A model generated the notes under the pieces. That model saw nothing but the letters and a program-made list of their open reading frames with translations. It ran no database searches and was not told the DNA's origin. Both the position numbers and the translations under genes were made by a program. 57,392 bases of DNA from Xenococcaceae cyanobacterium (lineage in GTDB: Bacteria > Cyanobacteriota > Cyanobacteriia > Cyanobacteriales > Xenococcaceae): positions 1 to 57,392 of the forward strand of contig JBFRWE010000469.1 in the NCBI GenBank assembly GCA_051439345.1, written 5' to 3'. Below are positions 3,705-53,079 of the stretch, in pieces (the stretch's first letter is position 1; each line of letters begins with the position of its first letter).

Positions 3705-3740
3705 GGGACTTAGCATGCTATGTCCGTACGGTGGTTAGTC
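3705..3740. repeat. Imperfect copy of a palindromic intergenic element centred on GCATGC
   Basis: gggacttagcatgctatgtccgtacggtggttagtc matches 5340-5375 at 31 of 36 positions. Confidence 0.75.
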
Positions 3741-3764
3741 CGATTAGTTATCAGGAGAAAAAAA

Positions 3765-5321
3765 ATGGAAAATTATGATTATGTAATTTTAGGTGCTGGA
3801 TTAGGTGGGTTGTCCGCAGCAGCTTGTCTGACTCGTCAGGGATATCGAGTGGCTGTCTTAGAACAGCACTATCTACCTGGAGGTTGTTGTCATACTTTCG
3901 ATTATGGGGATTATAGCTTTTGTGCCGATGTCCACTATATTTATCAATGTGGTGAAGGACAATCAGTAAAACAATTTCTCAACTATATCGATCGCCATGT
4001 TCCTTTCAATTCTCTCGATCCAGACTGTATCGATCGAGTAATTACCCCAGAGGTTGATTTTCGCATTCCTTTAAATTGGTCAAAATTCCGCGATCGCCTA
4101 CTAAAGACTTTTCCCGAAGAAGCACAAGGAATTAATCTCTACTGCGATGAAATCAACCAATTACATCAAGAACTACGACAGTTGACTAAGGAGGTGCATT
4201 GGTTTGATTTAGATTGGTCCGATTGGTTATCCTTGCCTAAATATTGGCATTTATTCACTAGAAGGAACTGGACGTTACAAGACCTCTACGATCGCACAGG
4301 ACTATCTCCCAAACTACAGGCATTATTAGCTGGACAAAGTGGTGACTATGGCTTACCACCGTCAGAAATTGCCCTAATTACCCATACCTCTTTGGTTGGG
4401 GATTACTCAGAAGGTGCTTATTATCCCCAGCATCATTTTAAACACTTAGTGGATACTGTTGTCTCTGCTATTACCGAAGGTGGCGGTGTAGTTAAATATT
4501 CTACACCAGTACAGCACATCGAAGTGGAAAACCATCAGGTTCAAAGTATAACCGCAGGGGGAGAAACCTATCAAGCTGATATTGCCTATATTAGCGACCT
4601 CGATCCCAAATTGACTATCAGCTTAATGCATAATTCTTTGGCTTTAAGCCGACAAGAATATCGCCGTTTAACTAATTATGAATACTCAGCTAGTGCTTTT
4701 AATATTTATCTTGGTTTAGACTCTCGGTTTGAACCCCAATCTTACGGTCTTGGTAACTGGAATATCTGGTACTATCCCAATGGCGATCTTAACCAAGCCT
4801 ATCAACAGCAGCTTGAAGGCAATTTAGAACATCCTTGGATCTTTTTATCCTGTCCTACCTTGAAATCTAGCGAGCCAGGTATGGCACCAGAAGGTCATCA
4901 TGTTTTAGAAGTTACCACTATCTGCCCCTACGAACCGTTTAAACAACTCCACGAAAACGATACTAAAGCCTACAAAGCTAAAAAACGAGCCGTATATCAG
5001 CAGGTAATGACTGGCGTTCGCAATTTAATTCCCGATATTAACAAATATACTCGCATGAAAATTTATGGTACACCTACCACTAGCGAATATTATCTCGGAC
5101 AACCAGAGGGTAATATGTACGGTGCGAAACTCATTCCCCAACAAATTGGTTTAAATCGTTTGGGTTATAAAACTGAATTGCCTAATTTGTTCTTAGTGGG
5201 CGCAAGTGCTGGCTATCCCAGTGTACCAGGCGTAATTAGTAACGGTATGGACTTAGTGGAAATGATAACAGGAGAATCGATTCGGCAAGCCAAATCTGAA
5301 TTGGAGTTAGTGGTTATTTAG
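3765..5321 (+). CDS. NAD(P)/FAD-dependent oxidoreductase, phytoene desaturase (CrtI) family
   Basis: N-terminal dinucleotide-binding fold DYVILGAGLGGLSAA...VLEQHYLPGG. AGGAG lies 8 nt upstream of ATG 3765. The ORF-track start at 3720 falls inside the palindromic repeat. Confidence 0.85.
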   Translation: MENYDYVILGAGLGGLSAAACLTRQGYRVAVLEQHYLPGGCCHTFDYGDYSFCADVHYIYQCGEGQSVKQFLNYIDRHVPFNSLDPDCIDRVITPEVDFRIPLNWSKFRDRLLKTFPEEAQGINLYCDEINQLHQELRQLTKEVHWFDLDWSDWLSLPKYWHLFTRRNWTLQDLYDRTGLSPKLQALLAGQSGDYGLPPSEIALITHTSLVGDYSEGAYYPQHHFKHLVDTVVSAITEGGGVVKYSTPVQHIEVENHQVQSITAGGETYQADIAYISDLDPKLTISLMHNSLALSRQEYRRLTNYEYSASAFNIYLGLDSRFEPQSYGLGNWNIWYYPNGDLNQAYQQQLEGNLEHPWIFLSCPTLKSSEPGMAPEGHHVLEVTTICPYEPFKQLHENDTKAYKAKKRAVYQQVMTGVRNLIPDINKYTRMKIYGTPTTSEYYLGQPEGNMYGAKLIPQQIGLNRLGYKTELPNLFLVGASAGYPSVPGVISNGMDLVEMITGESIRQAKSELELVVI

Positions 5322-5336
5322 TTAGTACTTACGTAC

Positions 5337-5364
5337 GTACGGACGTAGCATGCTACGTCCGTAC
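5337..5364. repeat. Perfect 28-nt palindrome (REP-like; possible terminator hairpin)
   Basis: gtacggacgtagcatgctacgtccgtac equals its own reverse complement. It lies 16 nt after the stop of the oxidoreductase gene and is followed by tggttagtagttagt heptamers. Confidence 0.85.
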
Positions 5365-5517
5365 AGTGGTTAGTAGTTAGTTACTATTGACGCTCCAACT
5401 ATCAACTTTCCTATTTGATGTTCATCTCCTACAGCTAAAAGCCCGTAGGTTTCCACACTTACCCTACTGTTTATGACTAATGACTAATCACGAATTCTTT
5501 GCTAGAGAAAATTAAGC

Positions 5518-6039
5518 ATGTTCAAGAAAATATTAGTAGCTTTAGACCGTTCTTCACAAGCAGAAGTAGTTTTTGATTGCGCTTTGTCCATAGCTCAACC
5601 AGAACTGAGTCAGGTGTTGCTGGTACATTTTATTGACTGGCAAATGGAAAAAGTTTCTCCTTGGGTTGGTGTGGGTACTTTATACGATATCAATGTATCA
5701 GGCGATCGCTATCATCGAAACCGCGAACATCTACAACAAGCAATAGAAAAAAACAGGGCTTGGCTGGAAACTTATAACCAAAAGGCGATCGCTAAAGGTA
5801 TTAACTGTGAAGCTGAATGCCTAGTAGGTAGCTGCAGTTTAGGGATTGGCGATCGCGCTAAGAAATGGGGTGCAGATTTAATTATTATTGGTCGCAGGGG
5901 TCACAGGAATATATCAGAAATAATTTTGGGTAGCGTTAGTAATTACGTGATTCATCACGCCCCCTGTTCAGTTTTTGTGGCTCAAGGAGTAAAAGCCGAT
6001 CGGGCTAACATCTCGGAGCAAGATAGTGAGGTTAAGTAG
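5518..6039 (+). CDS. Universal stress protein (UspA family)
   Basis: MFKKILVALD... N-terminus and C-terminal GRRG...GSVSNYVIHHAPCSV ATP-binding-type motif. Confidence 0.9.
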   Translation: MFKKILVALDRSSQAEVVFDCALSIAQPELSQVLLVHFIDWQMEKVSPWVGVGTLYDINVSGDRYHRNREHLQQAIEKNRAWLETYNQKAIAKGINCEAECLVGSCSLGIGDRAKKWGADLIIIGRRGHRNISEIILGSVSNYVIHHAPCSVFVAQGVKADRANISEQDSEVK

Positions 6040-6064
6040 TTAGTAGTTAGTAGTTAGTGGTTAG
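6037..6064. repeat. Heptamer tandem repeat (TAGTTAG x3 + TGGTTAG)
   Basis: Read directly from the sequence. Begins at the usp stop codon. Confidence 0.85.
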
Positions 6065-15066: not shown

Positions 15067-16263
15067 ATGAAACAAGTCCTGACTATAGTTTGCAAACTCA
15101 ACCCTTCTCAAAAAGCAGTCAAAATGATAGATACTACTCTTGAGATGTTCGCTGCTGCTTGTAACTATGCTAATCAGGAAGTTAAGCCATCTATAACCAG
15201 CAAAACTACAATTCAATCTTTGGTCTATCAGACCATTAGAGAGAAATACAGTTTGTCTGCTAATTTGGCAGTTAGGGCTTGCGCGAGGGTTGGTGCTAAC
15301 CGCCAAACTGCGAAACAAAAAAACAAGCCAGTGAAAGCATTCAAGCCAACATCGGCGGATTATGATGCTCGGATATTTGCTTTCCGTGAGCAAGACTGGT
15401 CTGTTAGTCTGACTTTGGTTGGCGGTAGAGAGCATATTCCAATTGTTGCTAGCAACTACCAAGTTGGAAAGCTTAAAGGGACTAAACCAACATCGGCACA
15501 GCTTTGTAAGCACAAAGATGGTAGCTACTATATTCATATTCAAGTTAAGGATGAGTCCCCAAAACCAATTAACTCCGATAACGTGATTGGAGTTGATTTT
15601 GGTCGCACTGATATAGCGGTTACTTCTGACCACAAAAAATGGTCTGGTCATGAAATACGTGATGTTAGAGACAAATACTCTAAACTTCGCAGCGTACTCC
15701 AAAAGAAAGCCTCGAAAGGCACACGCAGTAGCAGGCGCAGATGTCGGCAACTGCTGAAACGGCTGTCGGGTAAAGAGAAAAGATTTCAACGCCATACCAA
15801 TCATGTCATCAGCCAAACCATAATTCTTGATGCCAAACAATCTAATAGTCTTGTAGCTATTGAAGATTTGACTGGTATTAGAAATCGAACTAACCAACAA
15901 CCTAGAAGTAAAACCGAAAGAAGACGCTCTAACTCTTGGGCTTTCTATCAGCTTCGTACTTTTCTTGAGTACAAAGGATTGATTAATGGAGTTGAGGTAA
16001 TTCCAGTTTCGCCACGTTATAGCTCGCAAACCTGTCATGCCTGTATGCACTTGGGGTTGAGAAGCGGAAAAAGATTTAAATGTACTAATAGCGGTTGCGG
16101 TTGGCATGGTGATGCTGATGAAAATGCAAGTTATAACTTGTCGATTATTGGAGGGGTTGTAAGCCTCCTTCGAGGTTCGGATTCTTTGTCTTGTGCATTG
16201 AATTCAGGGCTACTGAAATACCATCGCAGCGTGGCGAAAGCCAACGAGCGAAGCGTCCTTTAG
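15067..16263 (+). CDS. tnpB: TnpB (IS200/IS605 OrfB) RNA-guided endonuclease family protein
   Basis: RuvC-I GVDFGRTDIAV, RuvC-II VAIEDLTGI, zinc finger CHAC...CTNSGC, RuvC-III HGDADENASYN. I place the start at ATG 15067 (MKQVLTIVCKLNPSQ). Confidence 0.9.
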   Translation: MKQVLTIVCKLNPSQKAVKMIDTTLEMFAAACNYANQEVKPSITSKTTIQSLVYQTIREKYSLSANLAVRACARVGANRQTAKQKNKPVKAFKPTSADYDARIFAFREQDWSVSLTLVGGREHIPIVASNYQVGKLKGTKPTSAQLCKHKDGSYYIHIQVKDESPKPINSDNVIGVDFGRTDIAVTSDHKKWSGHEIRDVRDKYSKLRSVLQKKASKGTRSSRRRCRQLLKRLSGKEKRFQRHTNHVISQTIILDAKQSNSLVAIEDLTGIRNRTNQQPRSKTERRRSNSWAFYQLRTFLEYKGLINGVEVIPVSPRYSSQTCHACMHLGLRSGKRFKCTNSGCGWHGDADENASYNLSIIGGVVSLLRGSDSLSCALNSGLLKYHRSVAKANERSVL

Positions 16264-24293: not shown

Positions 24294-26132
24294 ATGACCA
24301 AAAGCGATCGACTTTCCTCGTTCCCTGTAAATAATCCTCTTTATCCCTGGAAAACCAAGATGATCGGCAAAAAATGGCTTGGCAGTTTATCTTTATTGCT
24401 CATCCTACCTTTAATTACAGGTAAAGTTATCCTCCCCCAGACAGCTAACGCTCAAACTACTTCTAAACAACAATTTTCTGCAGAAGCAAACATTCTTTAC
24501 GTTGACTCAAAACAAGGAAGAGATCGCCAAGGAGACGGAACTAAGGAATCTCCACTCAAAACTATCACTGAAGCTCTCAAGTTAGCTAAGTCTGACACTA
24601 TTATTCATCTTAATCCTGGGACTTATAACGAACAGACAGGGGAAACTTTTCCTCTGGTTATTAGTAAAAGGGTGACAATTCAGGGTAGTCCTAGTTCTAA
24701 AGGACATAATGTTGTCATTAATGGTAGTGGCGATTTCATCAGTCCCACTGGTGCAGGACAACAAGTAACGATCGCAGCCATTAAAGAAGCTCAAGGATTA
24801 ACAGGTGTAACGGTTATGAATCCTCATTCACGAGGACATGGGTTGTGGATTGAATCTTCTAGTCCTACAGTTACCAATAATAGCTTTATTCGCAATGGCA
24901 ATACAGGACTATCTGTTAACGGTAGAAGTGACCCAAATATTAGTGATAATTATTTTTCTCGTAACGGAGGTAACGGTTTACTTATTTACGGTACATCTAA
25001 ACCTCAAGTAGAAAATAATGAGTTTGAAAATACTGGTTTCGGAGTAAGTATAGTCCAAAACTCCGCACCAACTTTACTTGGTAATACTTTTAGTCGTAAT
25101 CGGATTGGGGTAATCCTAGAAGGTAATTCTCAAGCTGTTTTACGCAACAATGAAATCACTAATTCTGCAGAATCTGGCTTAGTGGCGATCGCTCAATCTA
25201 GAGTAGATTTAGGTACAACTACTCAACCAGGAGAGAATATTTTCCGTGGCAATAAGAACTTAGATATCCAGAATGGCACTCCTAATTCAATCACTGCTGC
25301 TGGTACAGAGATTAGTGGTAAAACAGAAGGAAGTATCGATTTTATGGGTACAGCGATTGCTCCCCGTACTACGGAAACAACTGAGTTAAGACCTCTAAAA
25401 CTTTTATCTCCTCTTTCTCCCAATCAAACTCCCATTTCGAGGGAAGCTTCTCAACCTTTACCTGTTGCGGAAACTGCCAATAGCAATAGTAATACTCTCC
25501 CACAACCTAAAGCCATTACCTATCCTGCCTCTCCTCCAGTATTGAGGGAAGCTTCTCAACCTTTACCTGTTGCGGAAACTGCCAATAGCAGCAGTAATAC
25601 TCTGCCACAACCTAAAGCCATTACCTATCCTGCCTCTTCTCCAGTTTCGAGGGAAGCTTCTGAAACAAAAGCAACCAATGAGTTGGTCTTTACTGTTCCG
25701 CCAGACCCTTCAACTCTCTCAAATTCCACTGTAGAAGAACAGGTTGATAGCTCATCAAGTAAAACTGACATCGATCGACCAGCTAAATTACCAGTTCCTG
25801 CTGTTCCGCAATCTAGTGCTCTTAGTCCTCAAATTAAGCCTTCAACTCTGACATCCTCTCCCCAAAATACCCAAATAAGTAGTTTGTCTGATGTCTTAGG
25901 AGGCAACTCTATAGCTAGTACTAGTACAAGCACAACTAAGTATAAAGTAATTGCGGAAGCTACCAGTGATAGCCAAAAAGCACAAGTGCGATCGATGTAT
26001 CCTGATGCTTTTAATACTACTTACCAAGGTAAATCTATGCTGCAAGTAGGAGTTTTTGGTAATCAAAATACCGCCGAAAATGTCTTGCAATCTCTAGAAA
26101 AAATAGGCATACAGGGAATTATTCTTAATTAA
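24294..26132 (+). CDS. Secreted right-handed beta-helix (DUF1565-like) protein with Pro/Ser-rich repeats and a C-terminal SPOR-like domain
   Basis: Signal/TM segment, DUF1565-like ILYVDSKQG...GTKESPLKTITEAL, parallel beta-helix NxxxN repeats, a 35-aa tandem repeat, and C-terminal LQVGVFGNQNTAENVLQSLEKIG. Confidence 0.8.
   Translation: MTKSDRLSSFPVNNPLYPWKTKMIGKKWLGSLSLLLILPLITGKVILPQTANAQTTSKQQFSAEANILYVDSKQGRDRQGDGTKESPLKTITEALKLAKSDTIIHLNPGTYNEQTGETFPLVISKRVTIQGSPSSKGHNVVINGSGDFISPTGAGQQVTIAAIKEAQGLTGVTVMNPHSRGHGLWIESSSPTVTNNSFIRNGNTGLSVNGRSDPNISDNYFSRNGGNGLLIYGTSKPQVENNEFENTGFGVSIVQNSAPTLLGNTFSRNRIGVILEGNSQAVLRNNEITNSAESGLVAIAQSRVDLGTTTQPGENIFRGNKNLDIQNGTPNSITAAGTEISGKTEGSIDFMGTAIAPRTTETTELRPLKLLSPLSPNQTPISREASQPLPVAETANSNSNTLPQPKAITYPASPPVLREASQPLPVAETANSSSNTLPQPKAITYPASSPVSREASETKATNELVFTVPPDPSTLSNSTVEEQVDSSSSKTDIDRPAKLPVPAVPQSSALSPQIKPSTLTSSPQNTQISSLSDVLGGNSIASTSTSTTKYKVIAEATSDSQKAQVRSMYPDAFNTTYQGKSMLQVGVFGNQNTAENVLQSLEKIGIQGIILN
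25441..25665 (+). repeat. 105-bp tandem repeat (2 full copies plus a partial one) inside the CDS
   Basis: gggaagcttctcaacctttacctgttgcggaaactgccaatagc... recurs at 25441, 25546 and 25651. It encodes REASQPLPVAETANS.SNTLPQPKAITYPAS. Confidence 0.9.
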
Positions 26133-28127: not shown

Positions 28128-28829
28128 CTATTTCCATGCACTACAATCAACAGGTTGTTTAGGGTCGGAAGCATGAGCTTGTTGGAGTAGCTCGATAAAT
28201 TGCTGATTAGCTTGTTTATCAATTAGCCATTCCTCATAGTCATCATCGAATTGACCTTTGTAAAAAGCGTTTTCCCAATTACAGGCTGATTTAATTTGAG
28301 TAGGAGTGAGATTTTTAGTGTTAATGAGGATGGCACTTGAGAGATTAGCATTGGTGATGTCAACACTCTTGAGATTAGCATTGGATAAGTTGGCACGATA
28401 GATATCAGCATTTTTGAGGTTAGCATTGGCGAGATTAGCATTGGAGAGATTAGTAAGATAGATGTCAGCATTTTTGAGATTAGCATTTTTGAGGTTAGCA
28501 TTGGAGAGATTAGCACGATGGATGTGAGCAGCTTCAAGATTAGCATCTTCAAGATTAGTATTGGAGAGATTAAGTAGCTTTAATTTTTTCTGAGCTTTGA
28601 CAAGTTTTTCTAAAGCCTCAATAATTGGAATTTGCCAACAATTGTTATTTAAAGAACAATCATAGACTAATTGTCGCTCGGCATTAAGTTTAATTTTGCG
28701 CCCAATAAAATAGCCAGCCAGAATTGAAACTAAGAGGAAAAAAATAAGCAAGATGAGGCAATTAGTTTTCGGCTGTTTGTTAGTTCTGTCTGGCAAATTT
28801 GTAGCAAATTCTGATTGATTAATTTTCAT
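28128..28829 (-). CDS. Membrane-anchored pentapeptide-repeat protein
   Basis: N-terminal TM (CLILLIFFLLVSILAGYFI) followed by a long ANLxNANLxN pentapeptide run. Confidence 0.85.
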   Translation of the reverse strand: MKINQSEFATNLPDRTNKQPKTNCLILLIFFLLVSILAGYFIGRKIKLNAERQLVYDCSLNNNCWQIPIIEALEKLVKAQKKLKLLNLSNTNLEDANLEAAHIHRANLSNANLKNANLKNADIYLTNLSNANLANANLKNADIYRANLSNANLKSVDITNANLSSAILINTKNLTPTQIKSACNWENAFYKGQFDDDYEEWLIDKQANQQFIELLQQAHASDPKQPVDCSAWK

Positions 28830-41173: not shown

Positions 41174-44100
41174 TTACAATTTATGTTTTGTGTTCAGATA
41201 TTTATCAGTTTCTCGCAATCGCTTACTCAAGAAGCGACATATTTCTAAAATAATGTGGGGACGTTGAGTTATCAAACTGATAAAGCGTTTTTTTTCTAAC
41301 TTGAGTAGAGTGCAATCTCGAAGAGCGATCGCGCCATCCCAACGAGGTGCATTATCAAAGAGTGCTACTTCACCAAAATATTGTCCTTGAGATAGTTGTT
41401 TAATCTCTTGTTGTTCTCCATCGAGAGTTTTGATGATTTTGATAGTACCTTCGGCAATAATATAGAGATGATCGCCCCAACTACCCTCAGTGTAGATAGT
41501 TTCATTGCTTAATACTTGTTGTTGCTCTAGTGCTTTATCGATTAAGAATAGCTCGTCTAAAGAAAGGTTTTTAAACAGAGCCACATTTTTAAGTAACAGT
41601 AATCGGTTCATCGATGAATTAGTGGGGGAAAGAAGTTGACAAGAAGAAGGAAAAATTTCTCTGGCAACCAATTGAACCACAGGATCGCTATCTTTGAGTA
41701 AGGTAGATGGTATCACCGCCAAAGCTATCAACGCACCAGTTCTGATCCATCTATCTTTGGACTCTAAGGCTTCAAGGAGTATTTTATAGCCTTTGTTTCT
41801 CAACCATTGAGGGTTAACAGTACTGGCGTTCACTTCTTTAAGTTGAACTTTATTTCCTGGTGGTTCTTGTTTGACCGAGAGGGGTGGCGGGGTTTCCTGA
41901 GGGGCTGTGACTCGAATCGAATTCGAGTCCTTGAAAGCCCCGTCGCCATACCCCTCGACAGTTTCTTTAAGCGGTGCGTACGCGGAGCGACTACCGTCAG
42001 GTCTCCTGCGGAATTTATAATCCGCAAAGCGGTCAGACCCCGCGTCGGCGAAAGACGCGTCTTGAAAAAGTTGCTCATGGGGGGAACCCCCATGAGCGCA
42101 CTTTTCCGCAAGGGAACGCTGACCAAGACAGGAACGCGCACCAAAAGAAACCCGACGGGGCTTACAAGGGGCAGACGCAGGTTCTGCCCACGGCCCCTTC
42201 CCAACGGACTGTCTCGCAATCGAGGTGTTGACTATTTGTTCGAGTAGGGGAACCAAGGGCAAGATAAAACGGCGATGATTTAAAGAAACTAGTACTTCTA
42301 CCGCGTTAGCCAAGTCTCTTTGCTCTGTCGTGGCTAAAATCCGCGTGACAGCCTTAACTGTACGAGAATAGCCCAGACAAGAAAGGATATACAAAACTTT
42401 TTGAATTAAACGTTGATGGTAATCATTAATCGCGATCGCTAAAGGTTGCCAACTAGGATCGTTTGGGGGGATTTGTTGTTGCCACTTACGAGTGCGAGTC
42501 AGTTGCTCAAACTCAGGAGTCAGATATTTAAATAAAATATCATTAGCGTATCGGTTTTGTACTTTGGCAATAGCTTCGATCGCTGTATCTACTACTTCTT
42601 TTTGCGGAGATGATAAACTTGCTTGAGCTAAAGATAACCCTGGTTTGCCATAAGCTGCTAAGGCACTAGCTACTTGCTGACGCACTCTGGGATGAGGATC
42701 GCTCAGTCCAGTTTTGAGGTAAGGTAGCATTTCTGCACAACGGGTAATCCCTAATAGCTTAAAGGCAGCAGTTCTTACTAATGGTTCAGAATTACCAATT
42801 TCTTTAACAGCTACTTCGGCTAAATCATAATTATCGACAGAAGCCAAGACACTTAAAGCTTCTAGTCCTTCTCGTTTAATTTCTGCATTAGCTTGAGGCA
42901 AGATATTAATCACTAAAGGAACTAATTCTTGCTGATGGCAATGAGTAATAATTCTCAAAATAGCTTTAGCAGTACTCTTTTCTAAAGAGGATTGCCAGAT
43001 TTTTGCCCAAGCAGTTTCTTGATTAGTAGTTTTGATACTAATAGCAGCTACCGCAGCTAATAACCGAATAGTGCGATCGCCATCTTGAAGCAAAGAGTCA
43101 ATTTGTTCTGGACTAAAAGTATATTGGCTAGCAATTAAAATTTCTAAAGCAGTTGTCCGTAAAATTGTTTGATTGTCTGGAGTTAGCCAATTTTTGAATT
43201 CTTCAATTGCTTCTGCTTCAGGAGTCGTAGCCAACAATTTAACCACTCCATGATGTACCTTTGTATCTCCCCTGAATAGTAGGGTTTTTACTTCGGGTAA
43301 AAATTGACTAGAGTTGCCCAAATTAGCTGCTAATTCTAAACCTTTGATTTGAACATAGGGGTCTTCATTAGTGAGTAATTCCCGAATTGCATTACTAGAC
43401 TGAGGTGGTAGCTGAGTTTGATACTCACTAAAATCATCTAGATTGATAGTATTAGAGCGGATCATCTCTTCCAAACTCTGAGCATAAAATTTCCCCATGG
43501 GTAGACGCACTAATAACAGTAGCACCGTCAAACCCGCAGCTAGCCAGGTAATTTGCCCCAGACTGAGATAGAGAGTGCATAACCACAACAGCACACCAGC
43601 TAAAGTCAGTCCTACAGAGTAAATGACACCATCACTCAAAGCACGAACTCTGCCGATAAATTCTTGAGGAACTCCATTGTAGTTTAACTGGTGTACAGGC
43701 AAATTAATTGCTTTGTAGAGTGCATCCCCATTGATATGCAGTCCAATGGCAGCCAACAAATTAAAATTAAGCAATAATCCTGAAAAGCTGATTAAGGTTG
43801 TCAGAGGATACACTGGATTCATCTGCGCTACCCCTAGCCACTTCAGTAAGGGACGAGTAAGAGCGTAGAGAACAACTACTTGCACCAAGCTAATAAGAAT
43901 CCGCATTAAACCCAGAAACTCAGTTAAAGCTTCTTCACTAAAATGCTGACCATAAATATTGAACCAGAGAAACTCCGAACTGATGTAGATAATTACCAGT
44001 AAAAAACTACTACTAGCCAAAAACGATACTAAAGGATAGCGTTTGACTAAATCGGGAAAGGTTTGCAGTGATTCAATAATTCCCGTTTTAGTTTTAGCGT

Positions 44101-44698
44101 AAATACGATCTATCCGTCTTTGAGATTTTTCTAGATAAACCAGTTGAGCAAAGGCAACTGCAAATAGAACTGGCAGACAAAATAGTAAATCCCTTGTTCT
44201 CAGATAATGAGACAAAACTACTGTCAGACCACCACCCAACATAGTACCTACTGCTTGAGCAATACCAATAAAAGGTGCATATTGCTTGTACTCTAAAGTA
44301 GTGAAATAGTCTGTTAATAAACTAGGATAAAGAATATTGTTATGAAAATCCCACTGGAAGAAAATAGCAATTAGCAGAATGTAATAAACTGCAACTACAT
44401 CTAAACTTAGTAATAAACGCAGTCCCAAGATCGCGAAAATAGAGAGCAGCAATATGTAGCGAAATAATTTAGGGCGACTATAGCGATCGATAATTTGTGA
44501 AAAGATGACATAAGCAGGCATAGAACATAATCCAATCAGGATAAAGGCAAAGGGTAAGTTACCTGCCCCAACATGACTAACAAACAAAGAGTTAGCTACT
44601 GCCATCGCTACTACGCTATAGCTTAAAACCGTAACCGCTAAAAGCAAAAGTTGAGTTAAACGACCGACTGGGTTAATTGAGAGACCTAAACGTTCCAC
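41174..44698 (-). CDS. Fusion protein: N-terminal multi-pass transporter-like domain (MFS/TLC-like), HEAT/armadillo-type repeats, C-terminal cyclic-nucleotide-binding domain; carries an in-frame insert of about 121 aa
   Basis: About 12 hydrophobic helices in the first 420 aa. HEAT-like repeats (DPHPRVRQQVASALA etc.). C-terminal cNMP beta-roll YFGEVALFDNAPRWDGAIA. The ORF is continuous through the GC-rich element. Confidence 0.85.
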   Translation of the reverse strand: MERLGLSINPVGRLTQLLLLAVTVLSYSVVAMAVANSLFVSHVGAGNLPFAFILIGLCSMPAYVIFSQIIDRYSRPKLFRYILLLSIFAILGLRLLLSLDVVAVYYILLIAIFFQWDFHNNILYPSLLTDYFTTLEYKQYAPFIGIAQAVGTMLGGGLTVVLSHYLRTRDLLFCLPVLFAVAFAQLVYLEKSQRRIDRIYAKTKTGIIESLQTFPDLVKRYPLVSFLASSSFLLVIIYISSEFLWFNIYGQHFSEEALTEFLGLMRILISLVQVVVLYALTRPLLKWLGVAQMNPVYPLTTLISFSGLLLNFNLLAAIGLHINGDALYKAINLPVHQLNYNGVPQEFIGRVRALSDGVIYSVGLTLAGVLLWLCTLYLSLGQITWLAAGLTVLLLLVRLPMGKFYAQSLEEMIRSNTINLDDFSEYQTQLPPQSSNAIRELLTNEDPYVQIKGLELAANLGNSSQFLPEVKTLLFRGDTKVHHGVVKLLATTPEAEAIEEFKNWLTPDNQTILRTTALEILIASQYTFSPEQIDSLLQDGDRTIRLLAAVAAISIKTTNQETAWAKIWQSSLEKSTAKAILRIITHCHQQELVPLVINILPQANAEIKREGLEALSVLASVDNYDLAEVAVKEIGNSEPLVRTAAFKLLGITRCAEMLPYLKTGLSDPHPRVRQQVASALAAYGKPGLSLAQASLSSPQKEVVDTAIEAIAKVQNRYANDILFKYLTPEFEQLTRTRKWQQQIPPNDPSWQPLAIAINDYHQRLIQKVLYILSCLGYSRTVKAVTRILATTEQRDLANAVEVLVSLNHRRFILPLVPLLEQIVNTSIARQSVGKGPWAEPASAPCKPRRVSFGARSCLGQRSLAEKCAHGGSPHEQLFQDASFADAGSDRFADYKFRRRPDGSRSAYAPLKETVEGYGDGAFKDSNSIRVTAPQETPPPLSVKQEPPGNKVQLKEVNASTVNPQWLRNKGYKILLEALESKDRWIRTGALIALAVIPSTLLKDSDPVVQLVAREIFPSSCQLLSPTNSSMNRLLLLKNVALFKNLSLDELFLIDKALEQQQVLSNETIYTEGSWGDHLYIIAEGTIKIIKTLDGEQQEIKQLSQGQYFGEVALFDNAPRWDGAIALRDCTLLKLEKKRFISLITQRPHIILEICRFLSKRLRETDKYLNTKHKL
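41870..42232 (+). mobile_element. Composite GC-rich structured element (TnpB right-end/omega-RNA-like units, no tnpB) inside the 1174-aa ORF; boundaries approximate
   Basis: Abrupt GC-rich block. Exact 24-nt match cctgcggaatttataatccgcaaa (42005-42028 = 52930-52953). Hairpins at 41909-41929, 42041-42059, 42073-42097 and 42169-42189. An inverted truncated arm at 41870-41942 matches 52954-53000 in reverse complement. Confidence 0.7.
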
Positions 44699-52719: not shown

Positions 52720-52765
52720 AATTCTGGCATAAACTTAGACAAATCTTGGTTAAGTCAGAAATTAC

Positions 52766-53079
52766 TCCGCCCTTCGGGTTCAACAGTTCTTGCTCCGTCC
52801 TATACGCGCTCGGAAACCTCAGCGCGGGCGGTGCGCTTTGCTCAAGCGGTGCGCGGGGAGGGGGGTTTTATCATCAGATGGATCGGCTAGAAGTACAGAC
52901 TTAAAATTATTAGAAACCCCCCTTCCACCCCTGCGGAATTTATAATCCGCAAACGGGGCTTTCAAGCACCTGAACCAAGTTCAGGTGACAGCCCCTCAGG
53001 AACGCGCACCGAGGGAAACCAGCCCACCGCAACTGTTTCACAAGACCGCACTTTCGCGCTGCTCTGACCGTTGGTCAAG
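52766..53079 (+). mobile_element. Intergenic GC-rich structured unit, TnpB right-end/omega-RNA-like, without tnpB
   Basis: GC-rich island in AT-rich spacer. Long stem ggggaggggggttt/aaaccccccttccacccc. Hairpin gcggaatt-TATAAT-ccgc. Nested stems ggggct(52955-52960)/agcccc(52990-52995) around cacctgaac(52967-52975)/gttcaggtg(52979-52987). The tail CCGCACTTTCGC...ggtcaag parallels 153-183. Confidence 0.7.

Follow-up and report, generated by a model that had tools for sequence, protein, structure and literature searches.

The window analysed here, a 57,392-nt stretch of a Xenococcaceae cyanobacterium (contig JBFRWE010000469.1, positions 1 to 57,392), contains a minus-strand gene for a 1174-residue protein that is interrupted by an abrupt GC-rich block. 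Comparison with relatives shows that this block, which we call element A, is a real insertion that is polymorphic at its site, and that it is a nested cluster, hairpin within hairpin, of small dispersed repeats. Stepwise, site-polymorphic insertion is shown, as are the precise entry of two of the modules (H2 and M1) without target duplication and a rapid turnover of hairpin tips. The explanation that we consider likely is that the block consists of non-autonomous, hairpin-forming selfish repeats that were built up stepwise in a variable linker of the protein and were moved in trans as single-stranded DNA (ssDNA).

The block (41871-42232) has 59% GC in a window that averages 38.6%. In 100-nt windows its GC fraction is 0.55-0.60 (41850-42249) against about 0.32-0.47 in the remainder of the host open reading frame (ORF), and only one comparable GC island, at about 52754-53078 (element B), was found elsewhere in the window. 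As the first-pass annotation of this DNA had reported, the GC-rich segment is abrupt and the host ORF (41174..44698, minus strand) continues through it uninterrupted. The exact boundaries were set by comparing empty with filled alleles. In three related loci (L002-L004; such loci carry L numbers throughout) the site is empty and reads CAAATAGTCCAACAAGAACC, whereas the window reads CAAATAGTCAA/CACCTCG...CTCTCG/GTCAAACAAGAACC, a net gain of 357 nt or 119 codons; this corrects an earlier estimate of 363 nt and 121 residues, of which the divisibility by three stands. The single pentamer at empty sites is GTCCA in L002 and GTCAA in L139, and two more distant orthologues have one pentamer each (..ATCGTCAAGCAAG.. 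and ..ATAGTAAAACAAA..). At the protein level a 92%-identical orthologue (P0003) reads ..LLEQI-VQQEPPGNK.. with nothing between, and the insert is missing from most of the 120 best orthologues listed (Pleurocapsales/Xenococcaceae), about 110 of which are 1040-1060 residues long.

A third allelic state accompanies the empty and the 357-nt ones. L001, an independent ENA assembly whose protein is 98% identical, carries a 225-nt version at the same codon, relative to which the window allele has gained 180 nt (a composite missing from L001) and lacks 45 nt (an extra nested hairpin unit of L001) and a further 3 nt. Each size step at the host site is divisible by 3, and no stop interrupts the host frame. 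An ancestral linker is excluded by the sites that are empty in close relatives, and an assembly artefact, a concern that the first-pass annotation had raised, by the variant element at the same codon of an independent assembly. Its proposal of a repeated palindromic element inserted with preservation of the host frame is borne out by the empty site that it had suggested looking for among orthologues, by the second allele, and by further copies beyond the block, which turned up as dispersed repeat families.

Pfam matches in the host protein are HEAT_2, HEAT and cNMP_binding (cyclic-nucleotide-binding, cNMP). Residues 824-942 make up the insert, which lies after the HEAT region and ahead of the C-terminal cNMP module. 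AlphaFold2, run on a shallow alignment of 14 sequences, predicted a confident HEAT solenoid at residues 435-825 (predicted local distance difference test, pLDDT, 70-94) and coil at residues 826-961 (pLDDT 21-31), and the linker that receives the insert is already variable and gapped when orthologues are aligned; the insert thus lies in this linker and makes it longer. The encoded peptides would include DGAFKDSNSIR and CAHGGSPHEQLFQDASFADAGSDR. From the conservation of the frame in two alleles we infer that the host gene is read through the block, giving a 119-residue, low-complexity, disordered loop that would be roughly neutral; evidently the insert is tolerated as an extra floppy protein loop. 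A search for a conserved peptide family with the 119-residue insert returned seven candidates, none of them significant, and is uninformative because the parent protein was not returned either. The extra 50 residues of Myxosarcina orthologues (P0113) were considered and set aside as unrelated, being not GC-rich and free of hairpin modules.

Four hairpins that had been listed within the block are all perfect stems (41909-41929, 9 bp; 42041-42059, 6 bp; 42073-42097, 11 bp; 42169-42189, 7 bp), and the reported 24-nt identity between 42005-42028 and 52930-52953 is exact. Predicted folding is more stable than that of dinucleotide shuffles on either strand (z = -6.2 for DNA of the plus strand, z = -4.9 for RNA of the minus strand). 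In the module map (Table 1), the outer backbone is a mini-element termed E-A, the parts of which lie at 41876-41898, 41944-41952 and 42217-42227. The main hairpin of E-A holds one H2 unit, whose orientation is opposite to that of the H2 in element B, as reflected in a 50-nt inverted match of 41894-41943 to 52953-53002 in which the apical stem differs yet stays perfect. The M4-type long hairpin, which shows homology to element B's core (compared in its L002 form) and is missing from the E-A copies of L129 and L007, encloses the M3 composite, the M1 hairpin and an H2-like variant, the last combining the H2 frame with a 21-nt hairpin family (xxGCGACGCAGGTTCGCxx) of metagenome H2 copies. In the L001 allele the M3 composite is replaced by 1 nt, which accounts for the net difference of 180 nt. 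The composite comprises the 24-mer hairpin (42005-42028), contained in the M3 unit GCGGTGCG...CGCGCACC, and an inner M3-type unit (42029-42129) with the M1 hairpin; this second unit has a covarying stem, GCGGTCAG...CGCTGACC. Simple copies of M3 occur in L006, L014, L093, L044 and L087. The block had been described earlier as a composite with an inverted arm beside a forward unit; it is composite and its H2 is inverted, but the modules are nested rather than adjacent.

Table 1. Coordinates of the host gene, of the parts of element A and of element B within the window.
Feature	Position	Strand	Description
Host gene	41174..44698	-	1174 aa; MFS-like membrane domain, HEAT repeats, C-terminal cyclic-nucleotide-binding domain (ORF track and Pfam)
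Direct repeat, copy 1	41871..41875		Reads TTGAC on the plus strand and GTCAA on the coding strand; borders the insert on its 3' side (empty versus filled alleles)
Element body	41876..42227	-	352 nt, 59% GC; nested array on the E-A outer backbone (module map)
H2 module	41899..41943	-	45 nt: ACGGGGCTTTCAAG + 21-nt perfect hairpin GACTCGAATTCGATTCGAGTC + ACAGCCCCTC; encodes ..DGAFKDSNSIRVTAP..
M4-type long hairpin	41953..42216	+	Arms 41953-41971 and 42201-42216 (ACAGTT...GGACTGT); within the E-A 5' hairpin
M3 composite	41972..42152	+	181 nt, CGGTGCG...CGCGCACC + AAAAGAAACC; inside M4
M1 hairpin	42065..42105	+	AAAAAGTTGCTCATGGGGGGAACCCCCATGAGCGCACTTTT; family across cyanobacteria
H2-like variant	42153..42200	+	CGACGGGGCTTACAAG + GGGCAGACGCAGGTTCTGCCC + ACGGCCCCTTC; tip of the M4 hairpin
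Direct repeat, copy 2	42228..42232		TTGAC on the plus strand, GTCAA on the coding strand (empty versus filled alleles)
Element B	52754..53078	+	Second nested hairpin-module element, in the spacer between the GGPP (geranylgeranyl diphosphate) synthase and DUF212 genes; flanks TTGGTTAA / TTGGTCAA

Element B, the intergenic counterpart, includes an M3 unit with the 24-mer (52930-52953), an H2 (52953-52997) and an AT-rich insert in a G6/C6 hairpin, and its predicted fold has z = -4.35. It too occurs in three allelic states (none in L001, 110 nt in L002, 325 nt in the window), and none of the six frames is open across it. Elements A and B share a plus-strand backbone, ACAGTT..YTYAAG / CGGTGCG.. 24-mer ..GGAACGCGCACC / RRGAAACC..AACTGT, which is occupied by different hairpins in the two. 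The short L002 allele, a 105-nt body plus a 5-nt repeat, amounts to 110 nt and is not a multiple of 3, which rules out a universal rule of that kind for module lengths. At the element B site L001 has GGTTAA-GTTAA-GTAATC, that is, two tandem pentamers and no element, and the tandem GTTAA could be an excision footprint or have existed beforehand. The L001 stretch orthologous to window 52746-52760 (about 15326-15345 of the reverse complement) reads TTGGTTAA-GTTAA-GTAATC. The AT-rich segment of element B is 50 nt long and is lodged in a GGAGGGGGG/CCCCCCTTCC hairpin.

The H2 family offers the closest view of a single module. The pattern ACGGGGCKTWCAAG-N15-35-WCAGCCCCT occurs in at least 120 metagenome contigs, and the H2 counts that follow were taken among the metagenome matches listed. 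The free segment is exactly 21 nt long in 117/124 instances and hypervariable, with 83 different sequences that almost always form a perfect stem of 8-9 bp with a 3-nt loop; no frame devoid of a tip was seen among these matches. The module starts with ACGGGGC and ends with CAGCCCCTY; the base 5' of it is mostly G, and the base 3' of it is always C or T, which is why we set the unit at 45 nt. Over 81 distinct copies covariation is seen at all 9/9 apical pairs, with 93% of cells paired; double-sided changes in the tip number 258 against 72 +/- 9 in shuffles, and pairing drops to 56% or less once the partner register is slid. One-sided (G-U) changes amount to 0-2 per pair, compared with 10-39 double changes, and the same stems occur with inverted loops (AAA/TTT, AGA/TCT). 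The near absence of G-U changes, together with loop inversion, argues that palindromy is kept at the DNA level and not by selection on one RNA strand, and indicates that it may be maintained by arm-to-arm templating or by inversion of DNA.

Target duplications were found at none of 104 H2 junctions (k >= 4), and the increment of 45 nt from one H2 was verified both in E-A copies and in the host-site alleles. H2 is hosted by the modules M1, M3 and E-A, by other H2 units (L078, L126, L091, L001) and by a 'CCGTACAGACGCG' hairpin; it also occurs in group II introns, in IS630-like transposase genes and in unique DNA, and H2-like copies lie within annotated Dam methylase and helicase genes of Stanieria plasmids. 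Twenty-six of 115 distinct copies fall in ORFs of at least 450 nt, covering both orientations and five of the six frames. Complementary flanks of at least 7 bp surround 9/107 copies (1.0 expected), an enrichment too modest for insertion into existing hairpin loops to be the general rule.

Two sets of H2 loci bear on the turnover of tips. The group II intron reverse-transcriptase loci L018 and L100 differ at 18 positions over 1866 nt, of which 11 fall within the H2 hairpin, every one of them compensated (tip CTCTTGAAATGAATTCAAGAG at L018 1695-1730, CACCTGAACCAAGTTCAGGTG in L100); the other seven cluster at 1560-1608, and no mismatch falls outside these two small clusters in the 1866 nt compared. 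The tip was thus swapped wholesale, and recently. In four IS630-like transposase copies (L041, L067, L069, L131; 74-79% mutual identity) an intact H2 occupies the same codon (..VWFW/D..ECGFSL..) with differing tips, so that the site must be a hot spot or H2 must evolve in concert.

Minimal E-A copies, 43 nt with a 5-nt flanking repeat, are present in L007, L113, L120 and L109 (TTCAA-CAACTCGATTGAGTATGCGGAGGAGACCTCCGCACCCCTCTCG-TTCAA in L007), and E-A with one H2 in L096 and L129 measures 98 nt instead of 53 nt, a gain of 45. At least eight copies are flanked on both sides by the pentamer KTCAA (TTCAA..TTCAA or GTCAA..GTCAA), and positions 2-4 of E-A covary with the start of the 3' pentamer (CACC with GTCA, CAAC with TTCA) in 8/9 independent copies, as expected if base-pairing with the element's own end serves to read the target or the cleavage site. 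The termini of E-A pair over only 3-6 nt, including part of the flanking pentamer. Five independent copies lie in long ORFs, one of them in a ComF-like phosphoribosyltransferase just before an ILLIDD motif. An intergenic stretch of the window that is also present in L001 (39115-39154) reads GTCAA-TAGCCTGAAGGGCGATCGCTACCCCTCTCG-CTCAA, an E-A 3' arm and pentamers around a HIP1 site, and may be a degenerate or short relative of E-A.

A blastn search with the M1 consensus matched 25 plasmid records, 24 of them cyanobacterial (including Nostoc, Tolypothrix, Fischerella, Chroococcidiopsis, Gloeothece and Stanieria) and one a weak Rhizobium match. The 24-mer core was found in five places among 185,579 species genomes, all in Xenococcaceae and including Xenococcus PCC 7305, in a scan with a 21-mer that is too specific for a census. 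M1 is spread across cyanobacteria, and E-A, H2 and M3 belong to Pleurocapsales/Xenococcaceae. The families inserted at the host site are polymorphic elsewhere too and are multicopy in Pleurocapsales.

Three of the six frames are open across the whole of element A. Its six frames contain 15-17 stop trinucleotides, compared with 16.5 in shuffles, and every one of them falls in the three frames that are not open (P about 0.0004-0.003); since the total equals the shuffle expectation, the open frames reflect a phasing of the stops and not a simple effect of GC content. The first-pass annotation had ascribed the lack of stops to GC composition and had counted three open frames besides that of the host, one of which (41974..42231, plus strand) covers just part of the block; neither statement holds. 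A general depletion of stop codons in the modules was likewise rejected, both on the stop total and on single H2 units, in which about 3.8 of 6 frames are open, as expected. The net unit sizes are all multiples of 3 (H2, 45 nt; M1, 45 nt as measured in tnpB; E-A, 43 + 5 = 48 nt), which is suggestive of 'coding-compatible' units.

At the host site the E-A mini-element (43 nt plus the 5-nt GTCAA, 48 nt net) entered at a GTCAA that was already present, after the HEAT region and before the cNMP module, and afterwards received the 45-nt H2, a M4 hairpin tipped by an H2-like unit and the 180-nt M3 composite with M1 and the 24-mer hairpin. In the scenario that we favour, the modules would move as folded ssDNA hairpins through a trans-acting, structure-specific enzyme. 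The likeliest candidate seems to us a Y1 HUH transposase, either of the IS200/IS605 or of the RAYT type, considering that H2 and M1 leave no duplication, that the asymmetric KTCAA used by E-A is also the terminus of local IS605 right ends and that the 5' end of E-A covaries with the pentamer. The complementarity of the hairpin arms would be kept by templated arm-to-arm copying or conversion and not by selection on RNA.

Several observations weigh against this scenario: (i) no autonomous partner or enzyme was found linked to the modules in the related loci examined; (ii) the 5-nt repeat of E-A resembles a target-site duplication, and in L007, where both copies are TTCAA, a true target duplication fits better than IS200/IS605, whose classic insertion makes none; (iii) the tandem GTTAA of L001 has the look of a footprint, while HUH enzymes excise seamlessly; (iv) clearly complementary flanks are seen at only about 10-17% of H2 copies; (v) the lengths of H2, M1 and E-A could be multiples of 3 by coincidence; (vi) frame conservation is the sole argument for the presumed translation of the insert; and (vii) on the coding strand the 11-bp stem of M1, with 8 GC pairs, is followed by AACTTTTTCA (T5; 42097-42064), an intrinsic-terminator-like arrangement upstream of the cNMP-binding domain that could truncate transcripts.

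The main rival dispenses with a dedicated transposase and has the repeats spread and homogenise by template switching or by microhomology-mediated gene conversion between palindromes; we regard it as possible, though distinctly less probable than trans-mobilised ssDNA hairpins. It accounts just as well for the strictly Watson-Crick stems, for loops flipped on identical stems and for swaps such as that of an entire hairpin between near-identical group II intron copies, and it sits well with the absence of target duplications at H2 and M1. Moreover, the intact H2 frames in the four IS630-like copies suggest homogenisation, and the flanks of that site (TTGGG / CATGAG) resemble the M1 context usual around H2. 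It fits discrete units and the pentamer less well: identical 45-nt units, 21-nt tips included, occur at unrelated loci with unrelated flanks, as expected of discrete transposition, a specific asymmetric pentamer stands at both ends of E-A, and only 9-14 nt of frame would be available as homology.

A role at the RNA level, either as a plus-strand antisense small RNA, as the first-pass annotation had offered, or as cis-acting mRNA hairpins (a terminator or stabiliser modulating expression of the cNMP domain), is improbable. The very stable folds predicted for both strands and the stem followed by T5 would suit it, but no promoter-like site was found in 41500-42600, Rfam gave no match at gathering thresholds in the whole window and only noise at E <= 10 in 41700-42400, and a tRNA scan found none. 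The stems covary almost without G-U pairs and tolerate loop inversion, and gene-borne copies exist in both orientations. As the element is missing from most orthologues, it is not needed for regulation of the host gene.

That the block stems from the omega-RNA scaffold of an IS200/IS605 TnpB, or from an end of the transposon (as a PATE or a solo right end), we think very unlikely. The right ends of five cyanobacterial IS605-family elements do finish with ..GATGTCAA, the same pentamer as the flanks of E-A, and a relative whose host protein is 85% identical carries a complete IS605-type element with divergent Y1 (HUH) TnpA and TnpB genes (L140 2778-4677) whose right end, ..GGAGATGTCAA, finishes with that pentamer too. 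The earlier impression that the outer ends of the block resemble IS200/IS605 right ends therefore holds for the terminal pentamer and for nothing beyond it, the ends being the 5-nt direct repeat. Comparison with the five right ends, and with left ends lacking a defined boundary, gave no convincing similarity of E-A or E-B past the pentamer; the left regions of Stanieria, Calothrix, Trichormus and Tolypothrix elements, in which the left boundary and the TAM are undefined, share at most the 6-nt ACCTCG with E-A, and no parent insertion sequence with termini matching E-A was found in 0.79 Mb of related loci. M1 matches do lie at the 3' end of tnpB in two Stanieria strains and in Gloeothece. In Stanieria, however, where TnpB reads ..RPDNHSVKG(ASAVLGVSPMSNSRG)QLRK.. 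against ..RPDRHKSKGQLRK.. in Calothrix, Trichormus and Tolypothrix, M1 is a 45-nt in-frame insertion that includes a variable lower stem, is missing from these homologues and has no visible target duplication around it, so that tnpB is a host and not the source, as the first-pass annotation had thought possible. The modules are found equally in Dam methylase, helicase and IS630-like genes, group II introns and intergenic DNA. In the plasmid tnpB genes of Stanieria and Gloeothece (L010 2501-2545, L013, L012) the region that received M1 also encodes the omega RNA, so that in these RNA-guided nucleases M1 could change the C-terminus of the protein as well as the scaffold of the guide RNA. We give least credence to the block being untranslated, for instance as an intron, intein or ribosome-bypass element (GC-rich mini-insertions can be bypassed, as with mitochondrial 'byp' elements), or being an ancestral linker or an artefact, for both alleles and all their differences have lengths divisible by 3 and bring no stop into the host frame, which removal would make unnecessary, the window has no Rfam intron family and the low-complexity peptide no intein motifs, and empty sites and two independent assemblies are at hand.

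Other repeats were noted in the window. Intergenic stretches at 3709-3746, 5315-5386 and 6014-6060 have a palindrome, GGACGTAGCATGCTACGTCCGTAC, followed by STRR-like runs of the heptamers TTAGTAG/GTTAGTA; a 'CCGTACAGACGCG' hairpin related to this family often hosts H2 in the metagenome loci. Two tandem repeats, one with a 15-nt period and nine or more overlapping copies (28310-28587) and one of 105 nt with 2-3 copies that are 92% identical (25429-25664), probably lie within coding sequence.

The block is ordinary in kind, a set of selfish dispersed repeats, and unusually well resolved. Its closest analogues are the small dispersed repeats (SDRs) of Nostoc, the Rickettsia palindromic elements (RPEs) and the GC clusters of yeast mitochondria. 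By organism and behaviour the SDRs known from Nostoc punctiforme and its relatives (Elhai et al., 2008, as described in PMC5861425 and PMC4390886) would be nearest, in a comparison by description: in the accounts given there they are tiny, hairpin-capable cyanobacterial repeats of tens of nucleotides, present or absent at orthologous sites and inserted precisely, also inside other repeats. The nesting seen here (H2 in H2, M1, M3 and E-A) and the three allelic states at sites A and B are SDR-like traits. According to PMC5861425, Nostocaceae are the only group in which SDRs were reported, whereas E-A, H2 and M3 occur in Pleurocapsales/Xenococcaceae; M1, which is also in Nostocales plasmids, possibly overlaps an SDR family. 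The present units further differ in being 43-45 nt long, with a constant frame, a hypervariable 21-nt palindromic tip and many in-frame genic copies.

RPEs are single units of about 100-150 bp that encode a conserved peptide and are confined to Rickettsia. They are palindromic inserts that lie in frame in unrelated protein genes and add a peptide compatible with the fold (PMC10969869). The 357-nt and 225-nt alleles are likewise palindromic repeats in frame and stop-free within a gene, but the units here measure 43-48 nt, nest recursively, use several frames and both orientations, appear to encode no conserved peptide and reside in Xenococcaceae. The precedent cited in the first-pass annotation therefore serves as a fair functional analogy, given the frame-keeping insertion demonstrated by the empty site, the multiple copies and the second allele. 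The GC clusters and double-hairpin elements of yeast and other fungal mitochondria are GC-rich palindromes in an AT-rich genome, form families with conserved frames and are optional at their sites, with an in-frame cluster in var1; they spread in a conversion-like manner, and double-strand breaks and gene conversion are thought to be involved. Optional GC-rich palindromic mini-elements with constant frames are common to both systems, but the clusters are organellar rather than bacterial and have no sequence relationship to the present modules.

Resemblance to REP/REPIN-RAYT systems and to PATEs lies in the short hairpins, the lack of duplication (H2, M1) or its atypical form and the probable recognition of single-strand structure, and, for IS200/IS605 PATEs, in the asymmetric target pentamer, which here is the IS605 right-end terminus. 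In contrast to REP/REPIN, our modules have no GTAG/CGTC tag and are not extragenic, as the H2 copies in long ORFs show; no RAYT or insertion sequence with matching ends was found in related loci, and E-A has a 5-nt direct repeat. Bacterial MITEs (miniature transposable elements with inverted repeats), those of Anabaena included, occasionally fuse with ORFs (PMC3184786, PMC10969869). The classical ones (Nezha, Correia, ERIC) are similarly non-autonomous, dispersed and strongly folding, with filled and empty sites, but the modules described here have no long terminal inverted repeats matching an insertion sequence, are three to five times smaller and nest recursively, and H2 and M1 make no target duplication. 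Possibly new are the 43-48-nt units of whole codons, the recursive nesting, the combination of a constant frame with a hypervariable perfect palindrome, and the frequent survival in genes.

We tentatively suggest, as an idea with some though limited weight, that H2, M1 and E-A form a class of very small mobile DNA hairpins (43-48 nt) in cyanobacteria that has not been described before. Such hairpins would be coding-compatible by design and recursive, would diversify through a self-templated, hypervariable tip, and might read a target pentamer by pairing with their own end, as in HUH single-strand transposition. If so, H2 and M1 (15 codons) and E-A (16 codons) would enter without a frameshift and colonise genes and spacers alike, and such hairpins would quite generally give rise to disordered loops in the proteins of cyanobacteria. 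The 45-nt unit, constant in length, free of target duplications and tipped by a hypervariable yet perfect palindrome, offers concrete material for tests of which enzyme or replication process moves and homogenises such mini-hairpins, and repeats of this kind likely break metagenome assemblies. For the host genes, the findings mean that insertions of selfish DNA are not always knock-outs in these cyanobacteria: repeats of 45-48 nt can pile up to 357 nt in an intact gene and turn into a new protein segment, and GC-rich, low-complexity inserts in other proteins of Pleurocapsales and Nostocales may derive from such repeats, a possible source of new linkers.

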